Below, one piece after another: positions 204 through 18,142 of a stretch of DNA of 18,142 bases (the first letter of the stretch is position 1; the number at the start of each line of letters is the position of its first letter). The notes beneath the pieces were generated by a model that was given only the letters and a program-made list of their open reading frames with translations, had not been told where the DNA came from and searched no databases. Source of the DNA: Gemmatimonadota bacterium (GTDB taxonomy: Bacteria; Gemmatimonadota; Gemmatimonadetes; Gemmatimonadales; GWC2-71-9). Location: NCBI GenBank assembly GCA_039586365.1, contig JBDHKN010000090.1:1-18142 (forward strand). The letters are read 5' to 3'. Position numbers and translations under genes: made by a program.

Positions 204-479
204 CTGTCTGTTTGTAGCCTTCTGACGGGGAATTATCGGAGTCTACCTTGCTGTCATGACCTCCAGCTCCTAACCGCACCGTTCAGTCGCGATGGACCCG
301 GCACGGCGGTACCCCTGGGGCGAGCGATTTCGTTTGCCGATGGTGTTGGGGCAGGCCTGATGGTGGTGGGGCCAGTGTCACACCCCTATCGGATGATCGG
401 GCGACGAAGCAGTCCCGAGCGTGACACGGAATGGGAAGCTCAGCAGCTTCGCTGCGATAGATCCCAAGGAGGCCCTGCA

Positions 480-683
480 GTGATCCGTTTCCCACCCCAC
501 CACAGGCACATCGCTGATCCCGCGCTGGGTGAGTCCACCCACTGCATCTGCCATCTGATGGACGAGGTGCCTCCCGGCGGCTGCGGCCGTAGCCACTGCG
601 TGAATCGCACTGAGCCAGCCGAGGCAGAGGATGGGCCTGAGCCCGATACGCCTGTTGAGCGCCAGCAGGAAGAACCGGCATAG
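480..683 (+). CDS. Small His/Cys-rich hypothetical protein (67 aa) with acidic tail
   Basis: AAGGAGG (466-472) 7 nt before GTG at 480, in frame with ORF 360..683; MIRFPPHHRH...HCICH...CGRSHC...EEPA. Confidence 0.4.
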   Translation: MIRFPPHHRHIADPALGESTHCICHLMDEVPPGGCGRSHCVNRTEPAEAEDGPEPDTPVERQQEEPA

Positions 684-723
684 CGGCCCGCCACGCGAAG
701 TCGGCTGAGGGGACTACGGCGCC

Positions 724-981
724 TGCCGGCGCGCCGGCTGCCAGCGCCTCGCGAGTGGCCGCGAGCCGCTGCTCCACCTGGTCGCGCGGCAGATCGATCA
801 GCACCCCGCCCGGCACGTAGCTGCGCGCCAACTCCCCGACCTGGTGGCCCTGCTCGAACTTGTCCTCCAGCGACATGTCGGGCACCAGTTCCGGTGCGTC
901 CGGCTCGTGTACCGTCCACCACAACAGACCGTGGCACTGGCATCCGGCAACGAAGTGGCTCTTGGAGAGTTGCTGTGGCAC
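724..981 (-). pseudogene. 5' fragment of a DUF2779-type (predicted PD-(D/E)XK-like nuclease) protein
   Basis: First 86 aa (LSKSHFVAGCQC..LLWW.VHEP..PEL....F.QG.QVGELAR...PGGVLI...AT..AL.AGAPA) match the recalled N-terminus of DUF2779 proteins; the ORF then loses protein-like character instead of continuing with the usual IFEA..F..D motif. Confidence 0.6.
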
Positions 982-1262
982 TGTGGTAGTCCTGGCTCCG
1001 ATGGTACTAAGCTACACGAAACCTGTGACAAGCAGCGCGAACCCGTGCCGTCTTCCCCTGCCTCTTACCGTCTTGTCACGCCGGCTACCGCAGCTCCCCC
1101 CCCGGCAGTTTTCTGCTGCAGCGGATCGACGATGCGGATCCCCCCGAAGGGGGTGAAGTCGCGGTCGCGGGGCGCGCGACAGTTATGGAGCCCTCGTGCC
1201 GAGCAGCGGCATGGAGGCCCGGACGTCTGCCATGAGCGGGGAGCCGCCCCCTCCGCAGAGCC

Positions 1263-1293
1263 CGTGTGACGCGCTCGCGGCACCCCAGGGTAT
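1263..1293 (+). promoter_or_regulatory. Degenerate copy of putative ECF promoter motif
   Basis: CGTGTGA-N15-CCAGGGTAT; same spacing as the copies at 2157 and 5943, sharing CGTnnGA and GGTAT; 92 nt upstream of the ATG at 1386. Confidence 0.35.
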
Positions 1294-1385
1294 CATCATT
1301 GCCCAGGAACTGTGAGTGGCCGCAGGCAACCAACCCGTCCCTCCCGTGACTGAGGCGCTGTTCCACTTTTCTCGTGAGGTGTGCC

Positions 1386-2090
1386 ATGTTGAGGCGTCTC
1401 GTAGCGGTTGTCTCGTGTGCCGCGGTTCTCGCGGTCGCTATCGCTGTTGCACCTTTGGCCGGCCAAACCGGGCGGGTGTGGGTGGAGCCCCGGGTCGGTT
1501 GGCTCGTCCCGACCCGAGACCTCGGACGGACCGACATCGTCGCCAGCGCAGGATTCGGTGTCTTTGAGCGAGCGGACCAGAGCGCCGTTCTCGGCCTTGG
1601 AGCCGGAGTCGAGCTCGGTTCCCGGTTGGCCCTGCGTGCTGCGGTAGATCGCTCGTTGGACGCGACCGTTGTCGGAGAGTGGAAGTGCGTCCCATTCGTC
1701 GGCTGTCCCGACGTTCTTCTCCCGCTGGAAGGTGAACTGAGCCGCTGGACGACGGTGATCGACGTTTTGTACCGTCCGGCGACGCCCTTCCCGGTAGAAC
1801 CCGTCGTGTTCGCCGGGTTCGGGCTCCAGCGCAACCAGCTCGGCTGGAATCAACCGGAAGCGGACGTGACGCTTCCCGCCTTCTCGTTCAGCGAGACCGA
1901 ACCCGTATATCGGTTGGGCGTGGGGGCTGAGCGGTCGCTCGGTCGGGTCAAGTTGTTCGGTGAGGTCGACGCCACGGCCGTCCGCTTCGGCGGCGGTCTC
2001 TACGAAAGCATCGAGGGCAACGTCGCAGCTGACCGCACGCTGTCCGTGGACATGGGATTCGTAGGCGGCGTTCGGATTCGACTTTGGTAA
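1386..2090 (+). CDS. Outer membrane beta-barrel protein (234 aa)
   Basis: GAGGT RBS before ATG 1386; signal peptide MLRRLVAVVSCAAVLAVAIAVAPLAG; alternating amphipathic strands; C-terminal strand GGVRIRLW ending in an aromatic residue. Confidence 0.75.
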   Translation: MLRRLVAVVSCAAVLAVAIAVAPLAGQTGRVWVEPRVGWLVPTRDLGRTDIVASAGFGVFERADQSAVLGLGAGVELGSRLALRAAVDRSLDATVVGEWKCVPFVGCPDVLLPLEGELSRWTTVIDVLYRPATPFPVEPVVFAGFGLQRNQLGWNQPEADVTLPAFSFSETEPVYRLGVGAERSLGRVKLFGEVDATAVRFGGGLYESIEGNVAADRTLSVDMGFVGGVRIRLW

Positions 2091-2156
2091 GGGTGCTCCC
2101 CGTCTGGTAGATCCCGGACATCGTCCCTCACGGTGCAGCGTCGCCCGAAGCGGCCC

Positions 2157-2187
2157 CGTCAGAACTCCCGCCGGCCGGGCGTGGTAT
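2157..2187 (+). promoter_or_regulatory. Putative ECF sigma-dependent promoter
   Basis: CGTCAGA(2157-2163)-N15-GCGTGGTAT(2179-2187), identical boxes and spacing to 5943-5973; directly upstream of the receptor-sigma-antisigma genes. Confidence 0.7.
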
Positions 2188-2206
2188 AAGTGTGGGTGCA
2201 TTATCG

Positions 2207-4711
2207 ATGATGCGACTTCCCCTCGTACCAACGGTTGCAGCCCTGTGCTGCCTGGTGCCCCAGGGGCTGGGTGGGCAGGACGCGCCGGCCGATACCGCGC
2301 GCTCTGGAGTGATAACCGGGACCGTGCTGGACGCGGAGACGGGCGTGCCGCTGCGCGGAGCCACGGTCGCTCTCGCCCTCGCTGCCGACGGTGTCATCGT
2401 CGCCCGCGCCCCCGACGTCCTCTGGTCCGCCGGTGCGGCGACCACGACGGACATGCAGGGGCGGTACCGCTTCGATCGCTTGCCACTCGGCCGGTACATC
2501 CTGCGCGTTCGCCGACTCGGGTATCGGCCCGCGCAGGTGACGGTCAATCTGGCTCGCTTCGAGCCGTTCCAGGTGTCGGTGGGCCTCCGGGTCCGGCCGA
2601 TCGCGTTGGAGCCCGAGGAGGTCAGGGTACTGGCGGCCCCGTTTGGGATCGACCTGGCGGCCCGCGAGCAGCCGACGGCCCGGTTGGCGGCGGCCGACTT
2701 CAAGCACCGTCGCTTCCTGACCAACGATAGTCGCGTCATCACACGGGGAGAGGTGATCGAGGCGGTGACGCTGGGCGAGTCCGACTTGTTCCGCGCCCTC
2801 CAGCGGCTCCCCGGTGTTGCGACGCGCGACGACTTCACGGCCGAGCTGTGGACGCGTGGCGCCCCGTGGACCCAAACGCGCGTCTACTTCGACGGGATGC
2901 CGCTGTACAATCCGGTCCACACGTCCGGCATCTTCTCAGCAGTGAATCCCGACGCGTTGGGCGCGGTGATCTTCCTCCCGGGTGTCCGGTCGCCGGCGGT
3001 CGGAGAAGGCGCGGCGGCCGTGATCGATCTCCACTCGCGCCCCGCGGCCGCCGAGCGGTGGTCCGGCGCGGTGGAACTGTCGGCGGTGAGCACGAGGGCG
3101 ACCCTCGACCGGCGCTTCGACGGCGGACGCGGGGGGATCATGCTCGCCGCCCGGCGCTCGTACGTCGACCTCTTGATGGAAGCTCTCGCCGGCGTCACCG
3201 GGGATTCGGCGCTACGGATTCCGTATGCGTTCTTGGACGGCGCCGCCCGCGTATCGCTTCCCATCGGACGTGTGGCCCTCGTCGAGGCGAGCGGCATGAT
3301 GGCGTGGGACCACTTGGGGGGCGACGTGCGGAACCTGATACGGGGGTCGGACGGTTCGTGGGGCAACACCACGGGACGCGTCAGCGTCGTGGCCCCTTTG
3401 GGCGATCTGCTCACGCGGACCACTATCGGGGCTACCTGGTTCCGCGGCCACGTCGACCGTCCGTCGGCCGCGCAACTGCCGCTGGCGGACAGCGCACCGG
3501 TTCACGCGCGGACGAACAACCAGCTCGACTACACCAGGGTCGAGACGGTGATAGAGGGCTCCTCGGCGGGCGACCGGAGCGGATGGTCGGCGGGAATCCA
3601 GCTGGAGAACCAGGTGCAGTTCTACGATGGCCCGTACCCGCGGCCCTATCCGTCGGACATCGTGTACGATTCGCTCCAGGTCACGGCGCGGCGCTCTTCA
3701 ATCGCGCTGTGGGGTGACACGCGCTGGTCGATCGGGAACGCATTCACCGTCGACATCGGGCTGCGAGCCCAGCTGGGTGACTCGGCTCCCAACGCCGCGG
3801 CCGTCACACTCTCGCCTCGCCTGGCTGCCCGCTATGTGATCGCCGCCGGGCGGGCCACGGCCTCGGTCGGGTACGGACGGTCCTACCAGTACGCCCAGGC
3901 GGTCGCGCCCGCCGGACCGGACATCGGTCCGGACCTGCACCTGACCGACGTGTGGCTGCTGGCTGGAGGCGCGGTGCCCGCCCTGCGATCCGATGTCTTC
4001 ACGCTCGGGATCGAGGGATGGCTCTCGGGTGCGTGGTTGGGAAGCATCAACCTGTACCAGCGGTCTGCGGTGGGGATGACGGTACCGGATCCCACGCCCG
4101 GCCTGTACACGAACATGCGGCCCGTCTTCGTGTCTGGCCGGAACACAGCGTGGGGTGTGGAGTTGTCGGCCCGCAAGCTGGTGGGCCGATGGACGGCATC
4201 GGTTGGCTACACCTACGGGTTCTCCACGATCGAGGCCGAAGGACTGGTCTATTCGTCACCCGCCGATCGGCGAGGAGTCCTCGACGGGACGGTCTTGCAC
4301 GGCGTCAGCCAATCGTTGCGGGTGGGGGGTGCGCTCTCGGTGGCGAGCGGCCAGCCCTTCACTCGCTTCGTCATCCAAACGCTCCCGTGCGACACGATCG
4401 CCGGTCCGTGTCCACCGCCCGCGGGCGCCCTGACCATCGAGCAGCCCAATGCGGAACGGGTTCCGACCTACGCAACCGCGAGCCTTTTGGCCGACTGGCA
4501 CCAGGCATTTCGCGGCTGGGAGTTAAGAGTGTACCTCCAGATGCGCAACGTGCTGAACCGCCGCAACGCGGTCACCTATGCAGGCTCGCTGGGAGGTTGC
4601 GAGCAACCGCCCTCCGGTCTCGTGGCGATCAAGCGCCCCGACGGGATCTGCGATCTGTTCGACAGAGGTTTGCCGTTGTTACCGCTCGCAGGGGTGACCG
4701 TCGCCTTCTGA
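2207..4711 (+). CDS. TonB-dependent receptor with N-terminal carboxypeptidase-regulatory-like domain
   Basis: Signal peptide; G.ITGTVLDAETG.PL.GATV...TD.QGRY.F..LP.GRY.L.V.RLGY domain; plug motif DLFRALQRLPGV...RG....QT.VYFDGMPLYNP.H..GIFS..NPDA; barrel ends in VTVAF. ATG 2207 preferred over GTG 2192 because of the promoter position. Confidence 0.85.
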   Translation: MMRLPLVPTVAALCCLVPQGLGGQDAPADTARSGVITGTVLDAETGVPLRGATVALALAADGVIVARAPDVLWSAGAATTTDMQGRYRFDRLPLGRYILRVRRLGYRPAQVTVNLARFEPFQVSVGLRVRPIALEPEEVRVLAAPFGIDLAAREQPTARLAAADFKHRRFLTNDSRVITRGEVIEAVTLGESDLFRALQRLPGVATRDDFTAELWTRGAPWTQTRVYFDGMPLYNPVHTSGIFSAVNPDALGAVIFLPGVRSPAVGEGAAAVIDLHSRPAAAERWSGAVELSAVSTRATLDRRFDGGRGGIMLAARRSYVDLLMEALAGVTGDSALRIPYAFLDGAARVSLPIGRVALVEASGMMAWDHLGGDVRNLIRGSDGSWGNTTGRVSVVAPLGDLLTRTTIGATWFRGHVDRPSAAQLPLADSAPVHARTNNQLDYTRVETVIEGSSAGDRSGWSAGIQLENQVQFYDGPYPRPYPSDIVYDSLQVTARRSSIALWGDTRWSIGNAFTVDIGLRAQLGDSAPNAAAVTLSPRLAARYVIAAGRATASVGYGRSYQYAQAVAPAGPDIGPDLHLTDVWLLAGGAVPALRSDVFTLGIEGWLSGAWLGSINLYQRSAVGMTVPDPTPGLYTNMRPVFVSGRNTAWGVELSARKLVGRWTASVGYTYGFSTIEAEGLVYSSPADRRGVLDGTVLHGVSQSLRVGGALSVASGQPFTRFVIQTLPCDTIAGPCPPPAGALTIEQPNAERVPTYATASLLADWHQAFRGWELRVYLQMRNVLNRRNAVTYAGSLGGCEQPPSGLVAIKRPDGICDLFDRGLPLLPLAGVTVAF

Positions 4712-4721
4712 CCGCGAACTC

Positions 4722-5213
4722 GTGCTCGCCGCGTTGCACGAGCACCGCGCGCCCCTGTTTCGCTACGTGGCGAGGCTCACCGGCGACGCGGACGTGGCGG
4801 AAGAGGTCGTGCAAGAGACGTTCGCCCGGCTGGTCACTCGGTCGCCCCAGCGCCTGGTCGATCTGCGGCCGTGGCTGTTCACGGTCGCGACGCGCTTGGT
4901 CAGGGATGAGGGTCGGCGCTCTCGGCGGCGCTTGCGACTGCTCGGGGCGCGGCCCCAGCGCCAACCGCTGGGCGACCCGCCGGACGACCCGGCGAGTAGC
5001 GCCGTGCGGGCCGACCTGCGCGCGAAGGTGCGGGCGGCGCTCGCCGGATTGCCGCAGCGGGACCGGACGGTGCTGCTGTTGCGAGAATCGGGGTTCTCGC
5101 ACCGGGAGATCGCGGAGGCGGTCGGAACGACCACGAAGTCGGTGGGGACAATGATCGCGCGGGCGCTGGACAGGCTCGCCCGAGAGCTCGCGCTGGACGC
5201 GGAGGACGTATGA
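4722..5213 (+). CDS. ECF RNA polymerase sigma factor (sigma-70 family, SigX-like C-terminus)
   Basis: Region 2 LFRYVARLTGD..VAEEVVQETFARL...WLFTVATRLVRD; region 4 L..LPQRDRTVLLLRESGFSHREIAEAVGTTTKSVGTMIARA. Confidence 0.92.
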   Translation: MLAALHEHRAPLFRYVARLTGDADVAEEVVQETFARLVTRSPQRLVDLRPWLFTVATRLVRDEGRRSRRRLRLLGARPQRQPLGDPPDDPASSAVRADLRAKVRAALAGLPQRDRTVLLLRESGFSHREIAEAVGTTTKSVGTMIARALDRLARELALDAEDV

Positions 5214-5938
5214 CGGCTCACCTGCAAGACGCTACGCTCGTGCGGCAGCTCGACGGAGCACTCGAGGACGACGAGATCGCGATCGTCCCGCTGCACCTCG
5301 CATCCTGCGGCGCGTGCGCCGAGCGGCTCGCCACACTGGGCCGGCGGTTTGAGCGGCTCGGCGAACTGCTGGCCGCAACCGACGTCCCGGTGCCGACCAC
5401 GGCGCTGCGCGCCCCACGGCGGTTTGTGCCCCAACGGGCAGGCGCGGCCGCGGCCGTCGTGCTGGCGTTCGCGACCGGCGTGGTGGCGGTCCGGCCGGCC
5501 CGAGCCTGGATCGTCGAGCGATCCGTCGAGCTGTGGACGCTCGTGACCGGTGGCGCCGAGGCTGCCCCCGCCGTGGACGAGGGGCCGGCCGCCCCCACGG
5601 CCACGGCTGCCGCGGTGTCGTTCACGCCCTCCGGTCAGCAGTTCCTCATCCGCGTTACAGGGTATCAGCTGGCCGGAACGGTCACGGTGGAAACGGCCGC
5701 GGTATCCGAAGTGACGGCGGAGGTGCGGGGCGGTGGCGAGACCGAGGATATCGTGGTGCTGCCGGACGGACTGCGGATCGTCAATGCCGGCCAGTCGACT
5801 GCTGATTACCACGTCTTGGTGCCCGCGACGCTCCGCGAGATCACCGTCGAGGTTGCGGGCCGCGTGGCAGCCAGGTTGGAGCCAAGCGGGGCCCTGTCGA
5901 CCTGGACGGTATTGTTGCGAGCGAACCGCGCGGGCTAG
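5210..5938 (+). CDS. Zinc-binding (ZAS / zf-HC2) membrane anti-sigma factor
   Basis: ATGA overlap with the sigma stop; H4 plus HxxxCxxC (HLASCGAC); hydrophobic segment AAAAVVLAFATGVVAV; beta-rich C-terminal domain. Confidence 0.85.
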   Translation: MTAHLQDATLVRQLDGALEDDEIAIVPLHLASCGACAERLATLGRRFERLGELLAATDVPVPTTALRAPRRFVPQRAGAAAAVVLAFATGVVAVRPARAWIVERSVELWTLVTGGAEAAPAVDEGPAAPTATAAAVSFTPSGQQFLIRVTGYQLAGTVTVETAAVSEVTAEVRGGGETEDIVVLPDGLRIVNAGQSTADYHVLVPATLREITVEVAGRVAARLEPSGALSTWTVLLRANRAG

Positions 5939-5942
5939 ATCA

Positions 5943-5973
5943 CGTCAGACACCGGATCGTTGGCGCGTGGTAT
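5943..5973 (+). promoter_or_regulatory. Putative ECF sigma-dependent promoter
   Basis: CGTCAGA(5943-5949)-N15-GCGTGGTAT(5965-5973), matching 2157-2187; lies in the 79-bp gap before the lipoprotein gene. Confidence 0.7.
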
Positions 5974-6017
5974 GTGAGAAGCAACTCATGCACTGGTGGG
6001 CCGAGACGGAGGGACAT

Positions 6018-7475
6018 ATGCGAGTCAAGACCTTGGCGGGATGGAACCTCGCGGCGCTGGTAGCCTTGGCGCTGGCGGCGGGGTGTGACTCCGGACCCGA
6101 GGGGCCGGAGTTCGCGGGTACGCGCGTATTGCTCACGGATGCGCCGTTCCCGTTCGATGAGGTCTCCCGCGTGGATGTGTACATCGTGAGCGTGGACGCG
6201 GCGGAAACTGCGGATACGACGGGCGGAGGGGGACCGTGGACCAACATCGTCACGCCGCGCCAGCGTTTCAACCTGCTCGACCTGCAGCGGGGCACGACGG
6301 CAATCGTGGGCGAGGGCGACCTCCCGGCCGGGCATTACCAAGCGGTGCGGGTGGTGATCGACACCGACTCGTCGTCGGTCTCGTACCGAGGCGGCGGTCT
6401 CGCCGAGGTTCATTGGCCGGTGGCCGGGGAACTGGCACTTCACGCGCTGGTGGAGGAGCCCGTTGCGGTTCCAGAGAGTGGCAGCGAGATCGTCATCGAC
6501 TTCGACGTCGGCAGGAGCTTCTGGGTGAACGAGTGGCAGGCCGACTCGATCGGGCCGCCCGGCTGGGGGCCGGACTTCTTCTTCGTTCCGTGGATCCGGG
6601 CGGTAAACGAGGCGGCGACCGGCGGCATCGTCGGACGGTTGCTGGGAGACGCCGACGGAGACGGCACGCCGGAACCCATCGAGAACGCCACCGTGAGCGT
6701 GCTGCGGGGCGACGTACTGGCCGGACCGCTCACGTGGTGGACGGTGGCGACCGGTGCCACGGACGCGAACGGTGATTTCAAGATCGACTTCCTACTACCC
6801 GGCAGCTACATCGTGCGCGCTACGCCGCCGCGTGCCGTGCCACTGGGCGCGGCCACGGTGACCGGTGTCGCGGTCACCGTCGGCAGGGACGCCAGCGTTC
6901 CCTTGGTGCTCGCCAGCGCCGAGGCCGCCTCGGTGGAGATCGTGGGCCCGAGTCAGGTCGAGGTCGGGCATGAGATCGCGTTGCGCGCGGTGGTGCTCGA
7001 CGCGAACGGTGATACCCTCACGGGACAGCCGATCTCTTGGCTGTATGGGCCGCGGGACGTGGCCGACATCCACGATCAGGGCGGCGGCATACCGACGGGG
7101 GAATTCGCCCTGGTCAAGGGTCTCATGGCCGGGGTGGTCTCGATCCTCGCGTCCAGCTTTGACCTGTTCGATTCGACGTCGGTTACGGTGGTGGATCCCA
7201 ATGCGCCGCCCGTGCATACGGTGGAGCTCACGCCGGCGGCTGTGACGCTCAACGTATACGACAGCCTGATGATAGCGGTCACGCTCAAGGACGAGCAGGG
7301 GAACGTACTCGGGCCGCGCGCCGTGGGGTGGGCGGTGAGCGACACCGCGGTCGTGCAACTCATCTTCACATCGCCGAGTCACGCGAGCGTAGCCGCGGTG
7401 GCTCCGGGGACGGCCAGCGTTACCGCCACCAGCGAAGGCAAGAGCGGCACGGCAACGGTGACGGTGAACAACTAG
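6018..7475 (+). CDS. DUF4382-domain lipoprotein with carboxypeptidase-regulatory-like and Ig-like (Big_2) domains (485 aa)
   Basis: GGAGG RBS before ATG 6018; lipobox LAAGC; VLLTDAPFP...FNLLDLQ.G...LPAG.Y..VR...IVIDFDVGRSF (DUF4382); two Ig-like repeats, the last ending A.APGTASVTATSEGKSGTATVTV. Confidence 0.85.
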   Translation: MRVKTLAGWNLAALVALALAAGCDSGPEGPEFAGTRVLLTDAPFPFDEVSRVDVYIVSVDAAETADTTGGGGPWTNIVTPRQRFNLLDLQRGTTAIVGEGDLPAGHYQAVRVVIDTDSSSVSYRGGGLAEVHWPVAGELALHALVEEPVAVPESGSEIVIDFDVGRSFWVNEWQADSIGPPGWGPDFFFVPWIRAVNEAATGGIVGRLLGDADGDGTPEPIENATVSVLRGDVLAGPLTWWTVATGATDANGDFKIDFLLPGSYIVRATPPRAVPLGAATVTGVAVTVGRDASVPLVLASAEAASVEIVGPSQVEVGHEIALRAVVLDANGDTLTGQPISWLYGPRDVADIHDQGGGIPTGEFALVKGLMAGVVSILASSFDLFDSTSVTVVDPNAPPVHTVELTPAAVTLNVYDSLMIAVTLKDEQGNVLGPRAVGWAVSDTAVVQLIFTSPSHASVAAVAPGTASVTATSEGKSGTATVTVNN

Positions 7476-7548
7476 GAAGCGGACCCGCGGTCCAGCTAGC
7501 GGTGTCGCACACACCGCAGAAGGGCGTCAAGATAAGTCAGGAAACGCT

Positions 7549-7584
7549 GATTTCTGTCTCATTCGGGCCGATGAGGCAGGAATC
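7549..7584 (+). terminator. Long hairpin, likely terminator of the + strand cluster
   Basis: GATTTCTGTCTCAT/ATGAGGCAGGAATC forms a 14-bp stem with two G-U pairs (fully paired only on +), followed by TGTTGCTCT. Confidence 0.5.
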
Positions 7585-7674
7585 TGTTGCTCTCGCTTGG
7601 CAGAGAAGGCCTTGTAGGTGTTATGTGGAAGCGCGGTGCCGCCTTCGACGGTACCGCTGTCAGTTCCACCGGCA

Positions 7675-9030
7675 TCACGGGGGCGTTCTCGCACGGATCG
7701 ACACAGCCGCCGTCCAGATCTCGAAGGCTCCGTCACGTGCATCCGGCCACAGTACGTGGAAGCGCCCATCTGCGCCAGCGGCGAAGCCAAAATAGTCACC
7801 CCCGGTTGGCCATCGTCGGACCGGGAACTCACCCGCGCGAGAGGCGTCAGGGCAGGAGAGGTCCGTCGCAACCCGAACGGCGGGACCGAAGGTCAGCCCA
7901 CCATCAAGCGATGCAGCAAAATAGGGGGCGTAACATCGTCCGGACGGATCGTCCCGCCGGTCCATCCAAGCGACGCCAAGAACTCCCTGGCCGTTCACGG
8001 CAACCTGGGGCTCGGACCGCGAACCGGCCTCTGACGCTGGTGGCTCTATCGGCGTTGCGGCGGACCACACCTCACCATGATCGGTCGAATACATCAGCAG
8101 AACCGCCCGTTGCTCATCCGCTTCACAGACATGGTAGAGCCGGTCCTGGAAGGGGCCGCTCGACGTATCCGCCGCTAAGAAAGTCGGGCGATACCAGCAC
8201 TCCTCCGTGACGAGCAACGGAATTGAGAAGGACACGCCTTGATCCGAGGAGACCATGGCCCAGGTGCGGCGGCCCTGGAGCGCGCCGGCACGAGACCTGA
8301 ATCCCCCCTCGGGCACGGGGCGTTGGAAGTCGTAGTAAGTGATCAGGAGGGTACCGTCAGAGAGTACGGCCAGCCCGTCTGAGTTCAGGTTTAGGTTGCT
8401 CGGCAACACGCGAGGCAGGATGTCCACGTAAACCTGTCCTGGTCGTACGCGCCCCACAAACAAGGAGAACCGCATCCTCCCCGCTCCAGGACGCCATACT
8501 TGGCTTGACAGCACGTAGATCGTGCCGTCTGGGGCGGCGAGGGACCGCGGACCGTCATGCAGCCCGCCGAGCCCTTGCGGAACGTCGTGCCAGGTGTGCC
8601 CGGCGTCCCGAGAGAAGAATGCTAGGAGGTTGTTGGTCGAGTCCGGCAGACTAGGGTGGGTGCCGAGCGCCGTCAACACAGCGGTTCCCTGATTCGTTAG
8701 GGAGACCCAAGGGTCGCCGCACCCCACACTGACGAGGTCGCTGCGCGCCCAATTGCGTCCACCATCGGATGATCGGAACGTAGCGCAATGTTCCTCGGCC
8801 GAGGCCGGATCCGAGGCGAGGTGGACCCAGCCGACGGCCAACAAGTTGTTCGGATCGGATGGGTGCGTTGCGAGGTGTGGCTCGAGCATGACCTGTCCGT
8901 CCGGCTGACGGGCAACCAAGACGTTCTCACTAACGTCGTACGCCAACTCCTGGGCCGAGGCATCACACGGAGGAACTGCGACTACCGTAGTAACGAGCGC
9001 TACTTGCCAGAGAGTTGCTGACGATCTCAC
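7675..9030 (-). CDS. Secreted BNR/Asp-box repeat (sialidase-like beta-propeller) protein
   Basis: GGAGG RBS before GTG 9030; signal peptide ending ASA-Q; five Asp-boxes: SSDGGRNW, SRDAGHTW, SSDQGVSF, STDHGEVW, SLDGGLTF; C-terminal GDYFG motif. Confidence 0.85.
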   Translation of the reverse strand: MRSSATLWQVALVTTVVAVPPCDASAQELAYDVSENVLVARQPDGQVMLEPHLATHPSDPNNLLAVGWVHLASDPASAEEHCATFRSSDGGRNWARSDLVSVGCGDPWVSLTNQGTAVLTALGTHPSLPDSTNNLLAFFSRDAGHTWHDVPQGLGGLHDGPRSLAAPDGTIYVLSSQVWRPGAGRMRFSLFVGRVRPGQVYVDILPRVLPSNLNLNSDGLAVLSDGTLLITYYDFQRPVPEGGFRSRAGALQGRRTWAMVSSDQGVSFSIPLLVTEECWYRPTFLAADTSSGPFQDRLYHVCEADEQRAVLLMYSTDHGEVWSAATPIEPPASEAGSRSEPQVAVNGQGVLGVAWMDRRDDPSGRCYAPYFAASLDGGLTFGPAVRVATDLSCPDASRAGEFPVRRWPTGGDYFGFAAGADGRFHVLWPDARDGAFEIWTAAVSIRARTPP

Positions 9031-9409
9031 GGTGGCCTCCACGTCTTGGGTTGCTCAGCACTGTTGTGACGGTCGGGGACGGGGCTTTCCCTGTATCAGC
9101 AGGTTGGTCGAGTCTGCCTGGATGGCCAGCCTACCCAGAAGCGCGATCCACGATCCGGTTCGAAGGTCACACGCAGGTCTTACTCTCGCAATCCGAGATC
9201 AGGAGCCAGACGTGTCCCGGCGTTCAAGAGGCACGACGGATACGAGACGGCCTCGAGGGCTTCCACATAGCTATTGATGGACAGACCTGCCTATCCCGAT
9301 ATGAGCCTTCCTTGCAGCATATCCCGCTGCCCCACGTGGGACGTAAAGCTGCCGCCTAGTTTTGACTGTGGCTAGGGGTTCTCCGGTAGTCGACTACGTC
9401 TTCCGGGAA

Positions 9410-9438
9410 TTGATTTGCGATGTTCTTTTGCATACGCT
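9410..9438 (+). promoter_or_regulatory. Sigma70-like promoter
   Basis: TTGATT(9410-9415)-N17-TACGCT(9433-9438); ATG begins after 5 intervening nt. Confidence 0.5.
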
Positions 9439-9443
9439 ACACC

Positions 9444-9632
9444 ATGCGTACACGCTACCCGCTGGACCCACCACCGAAGGTCACCCGCCGTGAAGTGCAC
9501 ATATGGCTGTCCAACATCGAGAGCGAGATAGGTGACATCCTGCGTGCACCGGCAGACAAACTTCACGCCCGCCTGGTGGCTCTCCAGAGATGCGTTGGCC
9601 GGTGGCGTGACAGGCTGGGTGTTAAGCGGTAG
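9444..9632 (+). CDS. Small basic hypothetical protein (62 aa), possibly leaderless
   Basis: MRTRYPLDPPPKVTRREVHIWLSNIESEIGDILRAPADKLHARLVALQRCVGRWRDRLGVKR; amphipathic helical pattern; fits the gap and converges on the hydrolase stop without overlap. Confidence 0.5.
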   Translation: MRTRYPLDPPPKVTRREVHIWLSNIESEIGDILRAPADKLHARLVALQRCVGRWRDRLGVKR

Positions 9633-9655
9633 CCTCACGGGGCCGAACTGAGCCC

Positions 9656-10603
9656 TTATTGGCCCATCCACGCTAGCAGCTCGGAGTCGAAGAGTTCGGC
9701 CTCTTCGTATTGCGGAGTATGACCGCTCTCTTCGAACACCTGCACGGTGAGGTCCCGGAACATTGGCCGAACCGGTTCCCAACTGGATGGCGGTGCAATC
9801 AAGAAGTCGTAGCGTCCGAGTGCCAAGAACACCGGGCGGTCGAATGTGTCCAGGCCCTCGGTGATATCGATCTCGGCGAAGATCCTTCCCCACACGTGGC
9901 CGATCATGTCCATGTTCACTGAAACGCCTTCCCATAGCGGGGTGGAGTCGAAGTCCGGATCATACCAGATCTTCGGGGCGTCACGGATATAGCCCTTGAT
10001 GAATGCCTCACCGGGAGGCAGCTGTGCCAATTCTTCATCAGGCAGAGCGGCCACACGTTCATCCCAGACGGCTTTGCGTTCCGCGGACGCAAAATCCTCC
10101 CAGTATTGCTGCATCGCCTGCGTGTTCTCCGGCCCGAGGTCCGGCGCAATGCCGATCATGATGACGTGCGAGACGCTCGTTCGGTATTTCTTACCATACT
10201 CGAGCGCCATAAAAGCGTGGCCGGAGTGGCCAATCACTGCTACGCGACCCAATCCCAGCTCCTGCCTCAGCCGCTCCACATCGTCCAGCAATGTGTCGAG
10301 CGCGAAGGCGGAATTGTCCACTGGTCCAGGTGATGGGGCGAAGCCTCGATGATCCATGAACACCATGCGCAGGTGCGAACGCAAGTTTTCGGAGAACGCG
10401 CGCGGATAGTATAGGGAGCTGCCGATGACTATGGCCGGCGTGCCATTACCCTCAATGCGATAGGCAAGGTCGAAAGCCCCCGCTGCAATGGTGCCGGTCT
10501 GCACCTCCGCCACCTGCTCCTGCTCCGACTGTGAGCAAGCCCCAACGACGCACGTCAACACAAGCAATGAGAATCCGTACAGCAATTGACGGCTGTGCAT
10601 CAT
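9656..10603 (-). CDS. Alpha/beta hydrolase lipoprotein (proline iminopeptidase-like)
   Basis: GGGAGG RBS; lipobox VGAC; MDHRGF, nucleophile elbow GHSGH, acid GRYDF, catalytic His in FEESGHTPQYEE. Confidence 0.88.
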   Translation of the reverse strand: MMHSRQLLYGFSLLVLTCVVGACSQSEQEQVAEVQTGTIAAGAFDLAYRIEGNGTPAIVIGSSLYYPRAFSENLRSHLRMVFMDHRGFAPSPGPVDNSAFALDTLLDDVERLRQELGLGRVAVIGHSGHAFMALEYGKKYRTSVSHVIMIGIAPDLGPENTQAMQQYWEDFASAERKAVWDERVAALPDEELAQLPPGEAFIKGYIRDAPKIWYDPDFDSTPLWEGVSVNMDMIGHVWGRIFAEIDITEGLDTFDRPVFLALGRYDFLIAPPSSWEPVRPMFRDLTVQVFEESGHTPQYEEAELFDSELLAWMGQ

Positions 10604-10706
10604 GGTTCCACAGCCTCCCTTCGACATGAGTTCATGCGGTGAATCATGACAACTGGGCGCGAACGCTCGGAGGTCGACAGCGCAAAGATGTACATCGGTA
10701 CTAGCT

Positions 10707-10767
10707 ACTGCAACGTGGTGCGTCGCAGTGCTGGAAGGCCCCGAGCGCCGCGAGACACTCGGGGCTC
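10707..10767 (-). terminator. Tandem hairpins downstream of the beta-propeller gene
   Basis: Minus strand: GCCCCGAGTGTC-TCGC-GGCGCTCGGGGC (10738-10765), then ACTGCGACG-CACCA-CGTTGCAGT (10707-10729); U-tract weak. Confidence 0.55.
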
Positions 10768-10784
10768 CGTGAGAGGAGTCCGCC

Positions 10785-12083
10785 CTACTGTGTTATCCCC
10801 TCGATCTGCCACACCTCCACGAACGGCACGTCAAACTCTCCGCGCGTGAGCCCAGTCATGAACCATGCACCCGATGTGTCCTGAGTGAACGCATGGCGAT
10901 TGGGGGGAACTGGCAGTGGCGCAACACCGAGGTATCGCCCCTCACGGTCGAACACGTCCCACTCGTCCGCACCCGGGGGATGCTGGTCGAAGTAAAAGTT
11001 CGCGAACTCGCGCTCGCTCAACTCCCGGAGCGGGCGGATCCGTTGGACCAAGAGCGTCCCGGCCGGCCCGCAGACGAACCGAAGGTAGGCGGGGTAGGTG
11101 GACTCGAACCGGACCGCCGACTTGAACCATGCCGCGAACTGTGCCGCTTGATCCTCCTGCGCCAGCGCATCGACTCGCCTGAATAAGGCCGCCTCATCCT
11201 CTCCGGTGAGTGCCAGAGGCTCCCGGTCCAGTGTCGCGATCCGCTCGACGGCCCCATCCGCACGCTGCCACAGGAGACGGAATTCGTCACTGTGGCCCAT
11301 CACGATCATCCCATCACATAGTTCGTATGCCGGCGCCCCGCGATAGTAGTGGTGCCGCCGGGTGTCGCCTTCCCCGGTGACGAAGGCTATGGTGGGAATG
11401 CGGGCCAAGGTGTCGAGGAACGCACCGTAGAAGTCTCGCCGAACGAGGAGGTCAAACCGGGTGTCCGCCGGCGCTGCATCGGCCGGGAGTGGCCGAAGGA
11501 GCGAGACAATCTGGCCCGTGGTCGCATCGTCGTCCCAGCTGTGGATCCAGTAGCCATTGCTCGGCACCGTCGAGAAGCCGCCGAGCCATGTTCCGTCTGG
11601 CGCAATGCGGCTGGCCTGTTGGTTGCGGGTATCCACAGCGAGAATCGTATCCCCCGGTCCGAGCAGCAGATCGATGAAGCCGCCAAACTCCCCAGGACCT
11701 GCGCCCTCCCTGCCGAGCGTAGACAGGTGCACCCCCGCGGGGGAGAAGAAACGCGCGTTGTGGTACTGTTCATCGCCCACCACCACGCGGCCGTCGGACA
11801 GGATGACGAGGCCCGTGAGACTTCCGAACATGTACGTCGAGTCCCCATCGGCGACGCCGATCCGCAGCCGTTTAGTGAACGTCCACCCGTCACCCTCGCC
11901 CCACATCGGCGTACCGTGATTCTCCACGAGCACGACACCGGCGCTGTCGCGCATGGTGCCGTCCCAACTCACTGTCGCGTCACGCCGGCCGCTACACACG
12001 GCCACGATGAGCGGGAGCAGCAAGATCGACATGCCGACAATGACGCGAACGATGAGGTATCGCTGGAAACGGTATCGAGCCAT
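10785..12083 (-). CDS. 6-bladed beta-propeller (NHL/TolB-like) exported protein
   Basis: GGAGG RBS; hydrophobic N-terminus; RDSAGVVLVEN, LRIG..DG...YMFG, GREGAGPGEF and WDVFDREGRYLG motifs typical of this family. Confidence 0.85.
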   Translation of the reverse strand: MARYRFQRYLIVRVIVGMSILLLPLIVAVCSGRRDATVSWDGTMRDSAGVVLVENHGTPMWGEGDGWTFTKRLRIGVADGDSTYMFGSLTGLVILSDGRVVVGDEQYHNARFFSPAGVHLSTLGREGAGPGEFGGFIDLLLGPGDTILAVDTRNQQASRIAPDGTWLGGFSTVPSNGYWIHSWDDDATTGQIVSLLRPLPADAAPADTRFDLLVRRDFYGAFLDTLARIPTIAFVTGEGDTRRHHYYRGAPAYELCDGMIVMGHSDEFRLLWQRADGAVERIATLDREPLALTGEDEAALFRRVDALAQEDQAAQFAAWFKSAVRFESTYPAYLRFVCGPAGTLLVQRIRPLRELSEREFANFYFDQHPPGADEWDVFDREGRYLGVAPLPVPPNRHAFTQDTSGAWFMTGLTRGEFDVPFVEVWQIEGITQ

Positions 12084-12129
12084 CGAGGACCTCCCGGGCT
12101 AGTCGGCCCGCACTACCTGGTCATGCCGT

Positions 12130-12302
12130 GTCCAGCAGTCTCGTCGTCGGGCGGCCGTCCTACTGTGGCGTCTAATACGGCGTCCTACTACGGCGTCTAC
12201 TCAGACGGCGGGGCACACAAAAGGCCACCGGCGTACTGTCTCCATAGAACGGTGGCCTTGAGGGCAACACCATAGCTTGCAGCCAGGTACACGGGTCCGC
12301 AA
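12130..12302 (-). repeat. Conserved upstream element, copy 1 (promoter + hairpin + GACGCC array)
   Basis: About 85% identical by manual alignment to 13151-13313; TTGCGG-N17-CAAGCT; stem AAGGCCACC/GGTGGCCTT (12221-12259); GACGCC units at 12154 (GACGGC variant), 12167, 12179, 12192. Confidence 0.9.
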
Positions 12303-12449
12303 GGTCAAGCCAAGCCTACAAAGACAGCGGACGCAAACGGCCACGATAACGCGCTTGAGAGCGAAGACGGGGTAGGAGTAGGGTCGATGTCGGAAAGCCC
12401 ATTAATGCCCAGGTTAAGCAAATTGAGCAGTACTACTGGTAGGACACCC

Positions 12450-12527
12450 AAGCAAACGGGGCCGGACTCGTGCCCGGCCCCGCAACACGAAGCCCCGAGC
12501 GCCATCACGAGACGCCCGGGGGGGGCT
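12450..12527 (-). terminator. Tandem hairpins downstream of the small beta-barrel gene
   Basis: Minus strand: AGCCCC(CCCC)GGGCGTC-TCGTGAT-GGCGCTCGGGGCT (12491-12527), then CGGGGCCGGG-CACGAG-TCCGGCCCCG (12457-12482) followed by TTTGCTT. Confidence 0.65.
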
Positions 12528-12577
12528 CATTCGGGTGACCGATGCATTTGCCACCCAGTGTGGGATGTCTCCACTGA

Positions 12578-13111
12578 TCAGTGAGTGAACACGGAGAACC
12601 CGACCGTAGCAGCGATCCCGTTACTCGCGGCGAAGTCGTCGTTCTCAAATGAGTGCACAAAGCTTCCATCGAGGCGGATGGCTATCTGGTCTGCAACTGG
12701 CATCTTCACGCCAAAGCCACCTCCCGCGCCGAATTGTGACGCACTCTCTCCCCCACCTGTGATGAAGTTCAGGCCGGCCTGGGGCCGGAAATATGCCTGT
12801 GCTGTGCTGCGATCCGGGGTGAAGTGGAACAACCCGGATAGCGACAAGGAGATTGTGGCGATTGCCTCAGAGCCCTCTAACTTGAGGATGTTTATGGCTG
12901 TACTGGGTTCGATCGACACGTTGTTAGATACCATGAACCCGACCCGGAGACTTTGGATTGGTACCGAGAACGTTGTCAAGGTGCGGCCGTTGAAGTTGAG
13001 CCCGAGCCCCCCGTCAACCCCCAGTTCGACAGGCCGACGCTGAGCTGCGAGCAAGATCGGTATCAACAGAGTGACCCCAGCTGACGCAATGGTCCTAGTA
13101 CATGCACGCAT
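12578..13111 (-). CDS. Small outer membrane beta-barrel protein (177 aa)
   Basis: AGGAGG RBS before ATG 13111; signal peptide ending LAA-Q; strands VELGVDGGL, LRVGFMV, YFRPQAGLNF, QFGAGGGFGVK, IRLDGSF, VGFSVF. Confidence 0.82.
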   Translation of the reverse strand: MRACTRTIASAGVTLLIPILLAAQRRPVELGVDGGLGLNFNGRTLTTFSVPIQSLRVGFMVSNNVSIEPSTAINILKLEGSEAIATISLSLSGLFHFTPDRSTAQAYFRPQAGLNFITGGGESASQFGAGGGFGVKMPVADQIAIRLDGSFVHSFENDDFAASNGIAATVGFSVFTH

Positions 13112-13150
13112 TTTGTCCTCCTGTTGGAGCGTCACGAAATGAACCGGATG

Positions 13151-13319
13151 GTCCGGCAGCCTCGTCGTCGGGCGGGCGTCTTACAGGGCGTCTACAACGG
13201 CGTCCAGCTACGGCGTCTACTCAGGCGGCGGGGCACAAAAGGCCACCGGCGTACTGTCTCCATAGCAGGGTGGCCTTGAGGGCAGGTACTAGTATGAAGC
13301 GAGGTACATGGGTTGGCTA
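13151..13319 (-). repeat. Conserved upstream element, copy 2 (promoter + hairpin + GACGCC array)
   Basis: Direct repeat of 12130-12296; TAGCCA-N17-CATACT; stem 13239-13277; GACGCC units at 13175, 13187, 13199, 13212. Confidence 0.9.
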
Positions 13320-13338
13320 GGCTGGTAGAACCTCACTG

Positions 13339-13386
13339 TGTAGTATTGAAATAGAAATGTCCGGTTTGGTTGAAATAGAAATGTCC
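13339..13386. mobile_element. Orphan ISNCY/IS1202-type terminal repeat
   Basis: TGT terminus at 13339, then two exact 17-bp repeats TTGAAATAGAAATGTCC (13346-13362, 13370-13386); minus strand reads GHFYFNQTGHFYFNTT, like the recalled GHFYFxLT ends of these elements; no transposase in the window. Confidence 0.7.
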
Positions 13387-13441
13387 TCTTTCGGAGTTTG
13401 TTTGTTCCAGGTGGATCGGACGACTCTCTCCGGTCTGGATA

Positions 13442-13828
13442 GTGACTGCCGTAGCAGCCGTCATTGGTGTTGGCTGGCTGGTGGAGATCTCGCTGCGAGA
13501 CGTCTTGGACGGTGTGACGGGACTGCTGCGACTAATGCGCTTCGACGTTGACAGACATGTGCCTATCGGGCTGGTTGTCGCGGTCGTCTTGGCTGTATTC
13601 GGGCTAGTGATCGCTTGGCCATCCGCATACCGCAAGCTCAGGCGCTGGAGCCGGGTCATGACTGTGCTCAAGTGGGTGAAGGCCTGGTCGGGCTGGCTGT
13701 TGGTACCGATCTTCCTGCTTCCACTCTGGGTTGCGCTGATCGTTCCGCTCCTGGCGGCTTACAGTCACTGGTGCCACGCGCGTTCGTTCCTGCGGGCAAC
13801 CGCAGTACGTCATCACCATATGGATTGA
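13442..13828 (+). CDS. Hypothetical membrane protein, probably 5'-truncated
   Basis: About three hydrophobic segments; GTG start with no clear RBS; frame stays open and protein-like upstream (SRWIGRLSPVWI) back into the IS end. Confidence 0.45.
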   Translation: MTAVAAVIGVGWLVEISLRDVLDGVTGLLRLMRFDVDRHVPIGLVVAVVLAVFGLVIAWPSAYRKLRRWSRVMTVLKWVKAWSGWLLVPIFLLPLWVALIVPLLAAYSHWCHARSFLRATAVRHHHMD

Positions 13829-14152
13829 CCGGACGCTCGAGCAACACCGGGCCCGAGCTATTGCTGATGCCGCGTGCCCAACAGAGGCGCGTCGCACAGA
13901 ACCGAGAGAGCTGGCGCGGCGGTGGAATCCGTGCTTCGTTGCTGATTGTGGATGAGAGTGGTGGCGAAGAACCTTGTGAGGCATGGCGCTGCCCTACATG
14001 CGGGTTCGTCGCACTGCATGTGGGGCCGACCGAACAACCCAGCGAGTGTCAAGCAGTGGTACGCGGCGTTGGAATGCCGAGCCACTAAAGGGCCTGGCCT
14101 AAAAGGCTCTCTGGACTCCGCTACACCACGAACAGCTATGCCCCCAAATAGC

Positions 14153-14227
14153 TTATTTGTCGCTCATTCGTTGCCGCAACTCCCCGAGCCAGTTCACCAC
14201 CATGACCAACTCGGTGGCTGGCCCCCC
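14153..14227 (-). pseudogene. C-terminal remnant of a Ser/Thr kinase-PD40/TolB-like protein
   Basis: Manual translation GGPATELVMVVNWLGELRQRMSDK* resembles the recalled terminal ELxVVxNWxxEL motif of these proteins; starts right after the permease stop. Confidence 0.6.
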
Positions 14228-14228
14228 T

Positions 14229-16912
<2,684 letters not shown>

Positions 16913-16916
<4 letters not shown>

Positions 16917-17236
16917 ACCGGTTCCACCCCCTCCCACATGCGGAGGTGGGCCATGCGGGATGCCTTTAGGGCCTCCCAACCCTCAGGAGTCAGCTCGAAG
17001 AACCGCTTTCCCTTTCCACCCCTGGCAGGATCGTGGTCGGCCTTCCTCGACACGACGAGATTCTGATTCTCCAGTCTCACCAGGGTCACGTGCACGGTGC
17101 TCACCGACACCTCCCGCCCCGAGACGTTGAGAAGCTCGTCCTGGATCGCGTTGCCGAATGCCTGATCGCCGAGACGCGCCACGGCCAGCATCGTCAACTG
17201 CTGGAGGTCGCCCAAGTGGATGCGTTTGTCTTTCAT
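16913..17236 (-). CDS. PadR-family transcriptional regulator (107 aa)
   Basis: LGDLQQLTMLAVARLG..AFG..I...L....GREVS...VHVTL.RLE....V.S......RGGK.KRFFELT.EG. Confidence 0.92.
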
Positions 17237-17276
17237 CTCGTCCCGCTCACGTGGATTCGAGGAAGCTCGCACACCG

Positions 17277-17306
17277 CAATATGACATTGTCACATTGTGT
17301 TCGCAA
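17277..17306 (-). promoter_or_regulatory. Sigma70 promoter with overlapping palindromic operator for the leftward padR
   Basis: Minus strand TTGCGA-N17-CATATT (17306-17278); palindrome CAATATGACA-T-TGTCACATTG (17277-17297, one mismatch) covers the spacer and -10. Confidence 0.7.
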
Positions 17307-17525
17307 GGGAGAAGGAACTGGAGACCTCAGCTCGTTCGGAACCTGCTGGGCACAGTAGTCGGAGGCGGGAAAGGCTTCTTTCGGAGGGACCCGTGAGCAA
17401 ACTGCTCTCCACCTATGTCCACGTTGGATTGAGTCTCTTCTCCCTCGTGCCGCGAGTGGAGTGTGCCTGGGAGGCCATGTAAAACGACAGGTGGGGGACA
17501 TCAGCCTCCTGAAACCTATTATTAA

Positions 17526-17538
17526 TACTAACGTAGTA
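17526..17538 (+). promoter_or_regulatory. Palindromic operator upstream of the rightward padR
   Basis: TACTA-ACG-TAGTA perfect inverted repeat in an AT-rich patch 45 nt before the ATG at 17584. Confidence 0.55.
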
Positions 17539-17583
17539 AAAATCATATTAGCAGTAATCATCCGTGATCGACGTGGAGAGCCG

Positions 17584-17925
17584 ATGACCGAGCTGCGCCT
17601 ACGGGAGTTTGAGGAGCTGGTCCTGCTGAGTGTGCGGATGGAGGGGGATGACGCCTGTGGAGTGACGATCCAGCAGGTGCTCGACCAACAGGCCGGAAGG
17701 GCCGTGTCGCTCGGCGCCATCTACACGGCGCTGGACCGCCTGGCCCGGAAGGGATTGGTGGAGTCGTGGTTGGGTGAGCCCACTCCCGTGCGAGGGGGCC
17801 GCCGTAAACGGCACTACAGGATTACTCCGGCAGGCCTGGAGCTACTCACCGAGGTGCGGCGGACACGCGAGCGGATGTGGCGGAAAGCCGGCCTGAGTGA
17901 TGTGAAGCAGGAGGCCACGGGATGA
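17584..17925 (+). CDS. PadR-family transcriptional regulator (113 aa)
   Basis: GGAG RBS; EFEELVLL.V.....ACGVTI...L....GR.VSLGAIYTALDRL.RKGLVES..GEPTP.RGGRRKR.Y.IT.AG. Confidence 0.93.
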   Translation: MTELRLREFEELVLLSVRMEGDDACGVTIQQVLDQQAGRAVSLGAIYTALDRLARKGLVESWLGEPTPVRGGRRKRHYRITPAGLELLTEVRRTRERMWRKAGLSDVKQEATG

Positions 17926-18142
17926 AAGCTCCCCTGCGGTTGGCCAGGGCGCTGATCCGCTGGCTCACCTCGAGGGCGCGGCGCAGCGAAGTCGAAGGTG
18001 ATCTGCTGGAGGCATACGCTGCTTGGCTGCGATCGAAGGGCACTGTGTCCGCGCGGCTCCGCTTGTGGCGTGAAGTGCTGTTGATCCCCGTGTGGCGTGT
18101 CATTGGCACGGTGCGAGCGCACCGTGACGGGAGCCCGCGTGC
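17922..18142 (+). CDS. N-terminus (permease prefix domain) of a second probable ADOP-type ABC permease; partial, runs off the window
   Basis: Not in the ORF track; ATGA overlap with the padR stop; MKAPLRLARALIRWL......EVEGDLLEAY......G...ARLRLWREVL parallels the prefix of the permease starting at 16916. Confidence 0.8.
   Translation, partial: MKAPLRLARALIRWLTSRARRSEVEGDLLEAYAAWLRSKGTVSARLRLWREVLLIPVWRVIGTVRAHRDGSPR

Follow-up and report, generated by a model that had tools for sequence, protein, structure and literature searches.

Tandem leader–hairpin frames around varying genes in a Gemmatimonadota chromosome and their likeness to PeSL cassettes

The stretch of DNA analysed here (the window) comprises 18,142 nucleotides (nt) of contig JBDHKN010000090.1 (positions 1 to 18,142, assembly GCA_039586365.1) from a Gemmatimonadota bacterium recovered from sediment (source genome G000, 5.44 Mb, 86% complete). 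It carries two tandem units on the minus strand, in which unrelated open reading frames (ORFs; the cargo) stand in one and the same non-coding frame. The frame consists of a leader (predicted sigma70-like promoter, 5' stem and conserved core) upstream of the ORF and a terminator-like hairpin downstream. An earlier reading of the letters alone (the sequence-only reading) had taken this arrangement for a reusable expression frame with exchanged cargo. The features of the two units are listed in the 5' to 3' direction of the minus strand.

13291–13319, minus strand: sigma70-like promoter type B of unit 1 (TAGCCA-N17-CATACT), predicted by motif
13237–13277, minus strand: lineage-variant 5' stem of unit 1 (AAGGCCACC..GGTGGCCTTTT), kept in the genus and missing from many other copies
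13143–13249, minus strand: conserved core of unit 1, with CGGTGGCC, GCCCCGCCGCC, four GACGCC repeats, the invariant 22-mer ending at 13159 and the degenerate CGGTGG partner
12578–13111, minus strand: cargo 1, outer-membrane beta-barrel protein of 177 aa (PF13505), with a homologue in another array (relative G002, contig C145)
12492–12522, minus strand: terminator-like hairpin closing unit 1, resembling part of the core 5' half in inverted orientation
12458–12481, minus strand: second hairpin, a separate small repeat outside the shared frame
12274–12302, minus strand: sigma70-like promoter type A of unit 2 (TTGCGG-N17-CAAGCT), predicted by motif
12219–12259, minus strand: 5' stem of unit 2, a type-B stem after a type-A promoter (mosaic leader)
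12130–12231, minus strand: conserved core of unit 2, with four GACG(C/G)C repeats
10785–12083, minus strand: cargo 2, probable beta-propeller exported protein of 432 aa
10738–10765, minus strand: terminator-like hairpin closing unit 2 (12-bp stem, 4-nt loop)
10703–10733, minus strand: second hairpin, single copy in the genome, outside the frame

The leaders (12130–12304 and 13151–13321) are identical at 147 of 175 positions (84%) and end 47 nt before the start of cargo 2 and 40–41 nt before that of cargo 1, in agreement with the element of about 170 bp and about 85% identity described earlier. The related hairpins that were said to close the two unrelated ORFs were likewise recovered: both contain GTCTCG and GGCGCTCGGGGC, and they lie 19 nt (10738–10765) and 56 nt (12492–12522) past the stop codons. 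The second hairpins reported after each unit also exist, 4 nt (10703–10733) and 10 nt (12458–12481) beyond the closing hairpins, but they are unrelated to each other and do not belong to the frame. Cargo 1 was confirmed as an outer-membrane protein beta-barrel by its PF13505 match. For cargo 2 there was no Pfam match and, in a separate comparison, only a weak NHL-type one; the propeller label is kept as probable because a similar cargo on contig C54 matches a six-bladed propeller family. Neither the leader nor the hairpin model matched the reversed genome better than E 0.47, and the pattern in the window is therefore not attributed to chance.

The source genome was searched for leaders with BLAST and a profile; 41 matches merged into 35 leader loci. 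Hairpins were searched with a profile seeded from those first spotted beside leaders, and 18 sites were retained at E<0.1. The 19th match (contig C50, E 0.11) lies inside an integrase pseudogene; it was judged to be a chance match and was not counted. Genes were called with a hexamer-based script, and linkage was tallied over the 18 hairpins and 35 leader loci. Of the 34 leader loci with a next gene, 31 are co-oriented with it, the three exceptions being partial copies. Seventeen of the 18 hairpins follow a co-oriented gene, eight stand no more than 20 nt from the next leader, ten close a leader-headed unit, and 13 are linked to a leader on either side (rough binomial P about 1e-20; unlinked divergent hairpins may be under-counted owing to the seeding of the profile). 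The hairpin is thus tied to the leader, rather than being an unlinked repeat; the converse association is looser, with a hairpin within 100 nt of the end of the first ORF at only nine of 35 leader loci, and past two ORFs at one more.

The frame is spread over at least 20 contigs of G000 and forms arrays: three units on C10, pairs of units on C44, on C29 and in the window, and further arrays on C54 and C18. In G002 four to five leaders stand on single contigs. The notion of a duplication confined to the window was therefore abandoned in favour of a dispersed family found throughout the lineage. The element was present in seven of seven genomes of the genus and in one of 53 other relatives. A 20-nt core pattern (one mismatch allowed) was found in 25 of 401 Gemmatimonadota genomes, at high copy number in three genera of the same family (24 copies in G000, 15 in G174, 13 in G146, nine in G181, eight in G207) and otherwise as single matches, some of them likely due to chance. 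GTDB genomes gave 103 matches (78 of the 80 loci with titles are Gemmatimonadota) and metagenomes at least 125. Searches of 50,697 phage and 72,556 plasmid records gave no match; IMG/VR gave four pattern matches and none for the hairpin, and the metagenome scan found no exact hairpin–promoter junction. Rfam searches gave no match at E<=5 for window positions 9000–14500 and just two chance matches (E 7–8) for seven other loci. In relative G006, 19 of 22 core-pattern matches fall, on both strands, in one third of the chromosome (C1:0.59–2.63 Mb).

A sigma70-like motif (TTGCGG or TAGCCA, 17–18 nt, CA..NT) was found in 107 of 191 copies, compared with five of 191 shuffled ones. Its distance to the core falls into classes near 11, 20, 26, 34 and 39–44 nt; in the shortest class the predicted transcript would start about at the core. 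A given promoter type is found with more than one stem type. As judged from these mosaic leaders, the promoter portion is exchanged independently of the core. A long variant, in which about 110 additional nt of predicted hairpins separate promoter and core, was noted at C44:13127–13391, C107:2342, C128:13509 and C131:54879; two of these copies sit before ABC permease genes.

The core itself (80–120 nt) is laid out as CGGTGGCC, 5–7 nt, (G)GCCCCGCCGCC, one to six GACGCC repeats spaced 12–13 nt apart, a 22-mer ending in GAGACC, and the degenerate CGGTGG partner. The 22-mer is kept unchanged over several genera. The whole forms an imperfect palindrome with outer arms CGGTGGC / GCCACCG-like. The arms differ by transitions only, which places C.A mismatches on the mRNA strand and lets the antisense strand pair via G.U or G.T. 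RNA folds of the antisense strand were well below shuffles (z −3.9, 30 of 35 below −2, for 35 of 95 short copies sampled; z −4.0, 21 of 25, for 25 of 50 long copies), whereas the mRNA strand was about as structured as its shuffles (z +0.55 and +1.5, respectively). With DNA energies the antisense fold gave a mean z of just −0.84. The bottom strand was the more stable one in 144 of 145 copies. In the window, the plus strand of the unit 1 core folds into one rod (RNA, −58.6 kcal/mol, z −3.9); the rod of unit 2 is weak (z −1.4).

Read from its base, the antisense fold shows an outer helix, then an unpaired spacer, a long inner helix and, at the end, a variable tip. Fifty-six aligned copies were compared; their right arm was for the most part set by the search pattern, and the majority of pairs are invariant. 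In these copies the 22-pair inner helix was 92.9% paired, compared with 35–59% for slid controls. The outer helix was 70% paired, and only two pairs are changed on both sides. Changes that improve pairing were not enriched at wobble positions (21/706 versus 32/733, p 0.21), and RNAalifold found six pairs and no covariation on the mRNA strand. The closing hairpin has a 12-bp stem and a conserved loop; among 49 hairpins, part of whose stem is fixed by the selecting pattern, variants keep the top-strand pairs (G.T 99, A.C 5), as would be expected of the predicted terminator. TTGC follows within 18 nt on the 3' side in 21 of 64 cases. By eye, the hairpin resembles an inverted partial copy of the core 5' half over about 21 of 25 nt.

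Several further roles were considered for these parts and rejected. Antitermination by pairing of leader and hairpin RNA was dropped, duplex energies being no better than with shuffled leaders. A methylation or restriction array of GRCGYC sites was discarded (GACGCC is not avoided, at 0.99 of expected), as was a leader peptide (the reading frames differ among copies). A presumed likeness of one stem variant to group II intron domain 5 (D5) found no Rfam support.

The cargo proteins range from 100 to 1100 aa; in G000 they include TPR proteins, M48, S15 and M1 peptidases, DJ-1, methyltransferases, ABC permeases, thioredoxin-like proteins and many unassigned ones. By a crude heuristic, 22 of 27 cargo proteins carry a signal-peptide-like start, compared with 71 of 192 neighbours (p 1.5e-5) and 1287 of 4278 proteins overall. 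The earlier emphasis on envelope proteins is corrected to an enrichment of exported proteins, to which the cargo is not limited. A family of about 100 aa, which we take to have the look of Nif11-like leaders, occurs in or beside G002 arrays (L156:3227–3532, L159:1637–1948, L162:1478–1759, L369:2173–2493).

Cargo varies both within the genome and among relatives, as expected of a reusable frame with exchanged genes and not of a single local duplication with fixed cargo. At the counterpart locus of G002 the hairpin and the hydrolase beyond it (84% identical) are kept and a different gene stands upstream, while the beta-barrel homologue is found in a different array, where it is enclosed by core and hairpin and follows a promoter of another type. 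Comparison of 244 units gave 46 shared-cargo pairs, many of them between species, with the same cargo in different neighbourhoods. In 12 aligned pairs the 5' limit of homology lay at the core 5' edge behind a different promoter (five), upstream of the promoter (four), at the 3' 22-mer (one) or was ambiguous (two); the 3' limit lay just past the hairpin in one of six pairs inspected. In one of the five pairs, C10/L193, promoters B and A are exchanged between a common hairpin and a common core.

One case suggests capture of a new gene. A 297-aa RpoS/RpoD-like sigma gene occurs twice in G006. One copy stands at a tRNA cluster, as in G000, G002 and G003. The other (L041:4401–5460 / L174) lies 13 nt behind a core, without the tRNAs or the native downstream gene, and differs from the G002 copy at about 18 aa, compared with about 7 between native copies. 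A TPR gene of G002 was dropped as a second case, the core there being decayed.

No recombinase tied to the frame was found in G000 or at the relatives' loci. G000 gave 11 tyrosine recombinase matches, of which one, the integrase of an island at tRNA-Leu (C74), lies less than 1 kb from a leader; it also holds one IS110 and one reverse transcriptase, in a group II intron on C91 (31800–33514) that is cut by the contig end and unlinked to the frame. We take this intron to be of class C from its look. IntI (TIGR02249 above cut-off) was present in 32 of 61 relatives and in neither G000 nor G002; no core lay in the 20 kb around the G006 IntI gene or on the IntI contig of G003. Genus-specific IntI-like matches proved to be tyrosine recombinases that adjoin Y2 transposases; they do not carry the element. 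A Y2 transposase occurs in eight of eight genus genomes, and no core or hairpin match was found near 25 Y1/Y2 loci. When 865 proteins from 163 loci were clustered, no recurring adjacent recombinase was seen (as judged from sequence heads and presumed labels). Neither these proteins nor the cargo lists contained a core–transposase–hairpin unit, apart from insertion sequence (IS) genes that seem independently inserted. Cores at L091 and L109 are followed, at distances of 93 and 164 nt, by genes presumed to be IS5-like and IS256-like. Relatives carry RAYT-like Y1 genes (RAYT, REP-associated tyrosine transposase; REP, repetitive extragenic palindrome) with REP-like hairpin repeats of their own (L327, L331, L334, beside a recN-like gene, L329, L330, L338, L339); the L339 flank contains GCCCTCAAAGGCCA, like the start of the genus's leader stem.

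Circle or excision junctions were sought in contigs of four runs, and none was convincing: joints of the 85%-identity kind were read as paralogous loci instead. In the contigs of all four runs loose ends pile up at 12138–12140, giving a sharp 3' edge. Flank synteny revealed no empty sites among the species compared, between which these regions are not syntenic. No dif-like site was found at any unit border; a presumed one lies on C48.

Two further features flank the units.

9656–10603, minus strand: alpha/beta hydrolase, also 3' of the hairpin in G002, with another gene before the hairpin there
13337–13433, plus strand: left-end fragment of an ISNCY element, outside the system, 18 nt upstream of promoter B

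The ISNCY fragment matches element ends of G002 and G006 at 95–99% identity. A right end precedes it by about 15 nt in run X4, like a tandem or circle junction enclosing a target duplication. Targeting of the frame by ISNCY was rejected, as the full G002 copy is located elsewhere with a duplication of about 15 bp. A second, short repeat (GGGGCCG..AGTTCGGCCCC and some 45 further nt) sometimes stands 3' of the closing hairpin, with sites in the window (12458–12481, 9595–9649), on C8 (18860–18930) and on C63 (65170–65250, 65605–65645); the hydrolase segment of the window seems inserted into it. A contig of run X1 (record 4) fuses mid-hydrolase to mid-propeller (10140–11563, 1422 nt skipped), either a strain deletion or an assembly chimera. 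Positions 14229–17925 hold a duplicated MacB/FtsX permease and two PadR regulators, ordinary for the group.

The genomes themselves show how the frame is built, how often it occurs, its linkage, the turnover of its cargo and the mosaic make-up of its leaders. To account for them we favour, with about even confidence, chromosomal expression frames resembling the promoter-early stem-loop (PeSL) cassettes of phages, which would exchange genes by homologous recombination between core copies. The predicted promoter would drive a transcript from the core, or from up to about 35 nt before it, to the hairpin. A crossover between two cores would excise or insert core–ORF–hairpin–promoter units and so yield arrays in which a hairpin abuts the next promoter. 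The core would leave the mRNA strand unstructured and the antisense strand folded, which might insulate the unit from antisense transcription or stimulate recombination. New genes, among them the additional sigma factor of G006, would come to stand behind a core through rare microhomology joins. Varied breakpoints fit homologous rather than site-specific exchange, and the mosaic leaders and the lack of a linked enzyme also fit this reading. Several points weigh against it. Neither an excised circle nor an empty site turned up in the contigs of the four runs or by flank synteny. Any two cores are roughly 80–90% alike, too similar for a breakpoint within them to be located; many shared-cargo pairs span different species. 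At 25 of 35 leader loci no hairpin follows the cargo, promoter and terminator are predictions, and de novo capture rests on one example, the G006 sigma gene. Homologous exchange alone leaves the invariant 22-mer, the one-strand palindrome and the first core of a new gene unexplained.

Shuffling by a dedicated cassette system outside the integrons may be kept as a candidate. Here the core would be a single-strand hairpin recombination site, analogous to attC, at which an unlinked enzyme captures ORFs and builds arrays; we hold this to be a lesser possibility. The helix–spacer–helix–variable tip order and the highly paired inner helix agree with it, as do the stability of the bottom strand in nearly all copies through a G.T-favoured fold (an attC trait, PMC5027507), the invariant 22-mer across genera, five of 12 breakpoints at the CGGTGG edge and the nearly ORF-precise placement of the sigma gene. 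Yet the fold is significant with RNA and not with DNA parameters, wobble positions show no excess of improving changes, the outer helix is incompletely paired, just two pairs are changed on both sides, the AAC/GTT triplets are missing, the site is upstream of the ORF, no linked enzyme was found and the other breakpoints fall elsewhere. The broader version, in which an unlinked enzyme or an RNA-based process reads the antisense-only fold, captures ORFs near-precisely, the conserved sigma factor included, and produces self-expressing arrays of envelope genes in chromosomes of sediment Gemmatimonadota, is entertained just as tentatively. A cis-regulatory 5' untranslated element or mobile promoter–leader, with copies kept for protein or antisense regulation of envelope genes and cargo differences due to ordinary duplication and rearrangement, we regard as unlikely. 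It would suit a core that begins about at the predicted start site in the shortest class, an mRNA strand no different from shuffles whose one to six GACGCC repeats could bind a protein, the excess of signal-peptide-like cargo, and the lack of a closing hairpin at most leaders; upstream regions repeated in this manner are frequent (PMC3575422). It leaves unexplained the tied conserved hairpin, the hairpin–promoter–core junctions and the relocation of whole units, and the motif is neither distributed over ordinary promoters nor a known Rfam family. Ends of a non-autonomous transposon with passenger genes (miniature inverted-repeat, REP/RAYT, IS91- or IS1111-like) are very improbable. The inverted likeness of hairpin and core, the CCCCGGGC..GCCCGGGG hairpins that flank relatives' RAYT-type genes and resemble the core outer arms, and the Y2 transposase in all eight genus genomes speak for them; but nine G000 units showed no target duplication (by eye), the inverted similarity is just sub-terminal, no core or hairpin match lay near the 25 Y1/Y2 loci, tblastn recovered none of the relatives' RAYTs in G000 (genome 86% complete), and the loci and cargo lists held no autonomous unit.

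Among known systems, REP and REPIN sequences with their RAYTs are short GC-rich intergenic hairpins. The frame has similar CCCCGGGC arms and GC-rich hairpins, but it is directional, always 5' or 3' of a gene, present in few copies and not found beside the RAYT genes. The 28-bp dif-like border sites of Xer/dif cassettes (pdif, integrative mobile elements exploiting Xer) were found at no unit. Derivation from a retron (msr-msd) or group II intron does not agree with the sole reverse transcriptase being unlinked on C91 and with the lack of a D5/D6 Rfam match, nor does any Rfam family mark the leader as a known riboswitch or cis-RNA. Like integron cassettes and clusters of attC sites lacking integrase (CALIN; PMC5027507), the units are tandem and ORF-sized and have an imperfect palindrome; its bottom strand would fold better via G.T pairs in the helix–spacer–helix–variable tip order, as RNA energies and pair counts suggest but DNA energies and the wobble positions scarcely do. 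They differ in lacking RYYYAAC/GTTRRRY with its AAC crossover triplet (the outer arms being CGGTGGC / GCCACCG-like), in having the site before the ORF, where integron cassettes are mostly promoterless with the site behind, in bearing a predicted promoter and terminator in each unit, and in conserving sequence and not only structure; IntI is absent from G000 and unlinked in relatives where checked. The earlier statement that this is no classical integron thus stands. In a broad sense the frame can be counted among the putative mobile promoters (PMC3575422), with which it shares upstream regions at least 80% identical before unrelated genes of one genome and the lack of an Rfam match; compared with the usual pairs it has far more copies, a tied 3' hairpin and arrays, and the promoter is its variable module.

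No description of the element was found in the open-access literature, supplements not included, where tables of repeated promoters or RNA motifs could contain it. The family offers hundreds of natural copies of a sharp core, swappable promoters and a closing hairpin in the chromosomes of an uncultured phylum, and bears on how acquired ORFs gain working expression signals and how gene cassettes first arise. Were an enzyme to read the one-strand palindrome, it would be a new structure-specific recombination system of biotechnological interest. The closest parallel is with the PeSL cassettes of T4-type phages, whose anatomy and recombination mechanism are given in PMC2839356 (see also PMC4122927). 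There, as here, repeated junctions of a terminator and a sigma70 promoter with a GC-rich stem-loop separate accessory ORFs in variable regions, and exchanges occur in or near the repeat at differing points with no known dedicated recombinase. The composite of terminator stem-loop and promoter is seen in the eight hairpins adjoining a leader and in the promoter motif of 107 copies, and ORFs are inserted, deleted or replaced at the repeat between related genomes. By the same accounts PeSLs belong to the hyperplastic regions of T4-type phages and form mini-circles between neighbouring repeats, whereas the present frame is chromosomal and dispersed, and the joints in its four contig sets fit paralogous loci. 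Its most conserved part is not the promoter but the palindromic core downstream, which is predicted to be transcribed, and its cargo consists of mostly exported proteins of 100–1100 aa. We therefore suggest that the frame works like a PeSL without being a member of that family, which makes the PeSL idea testable outside phages.

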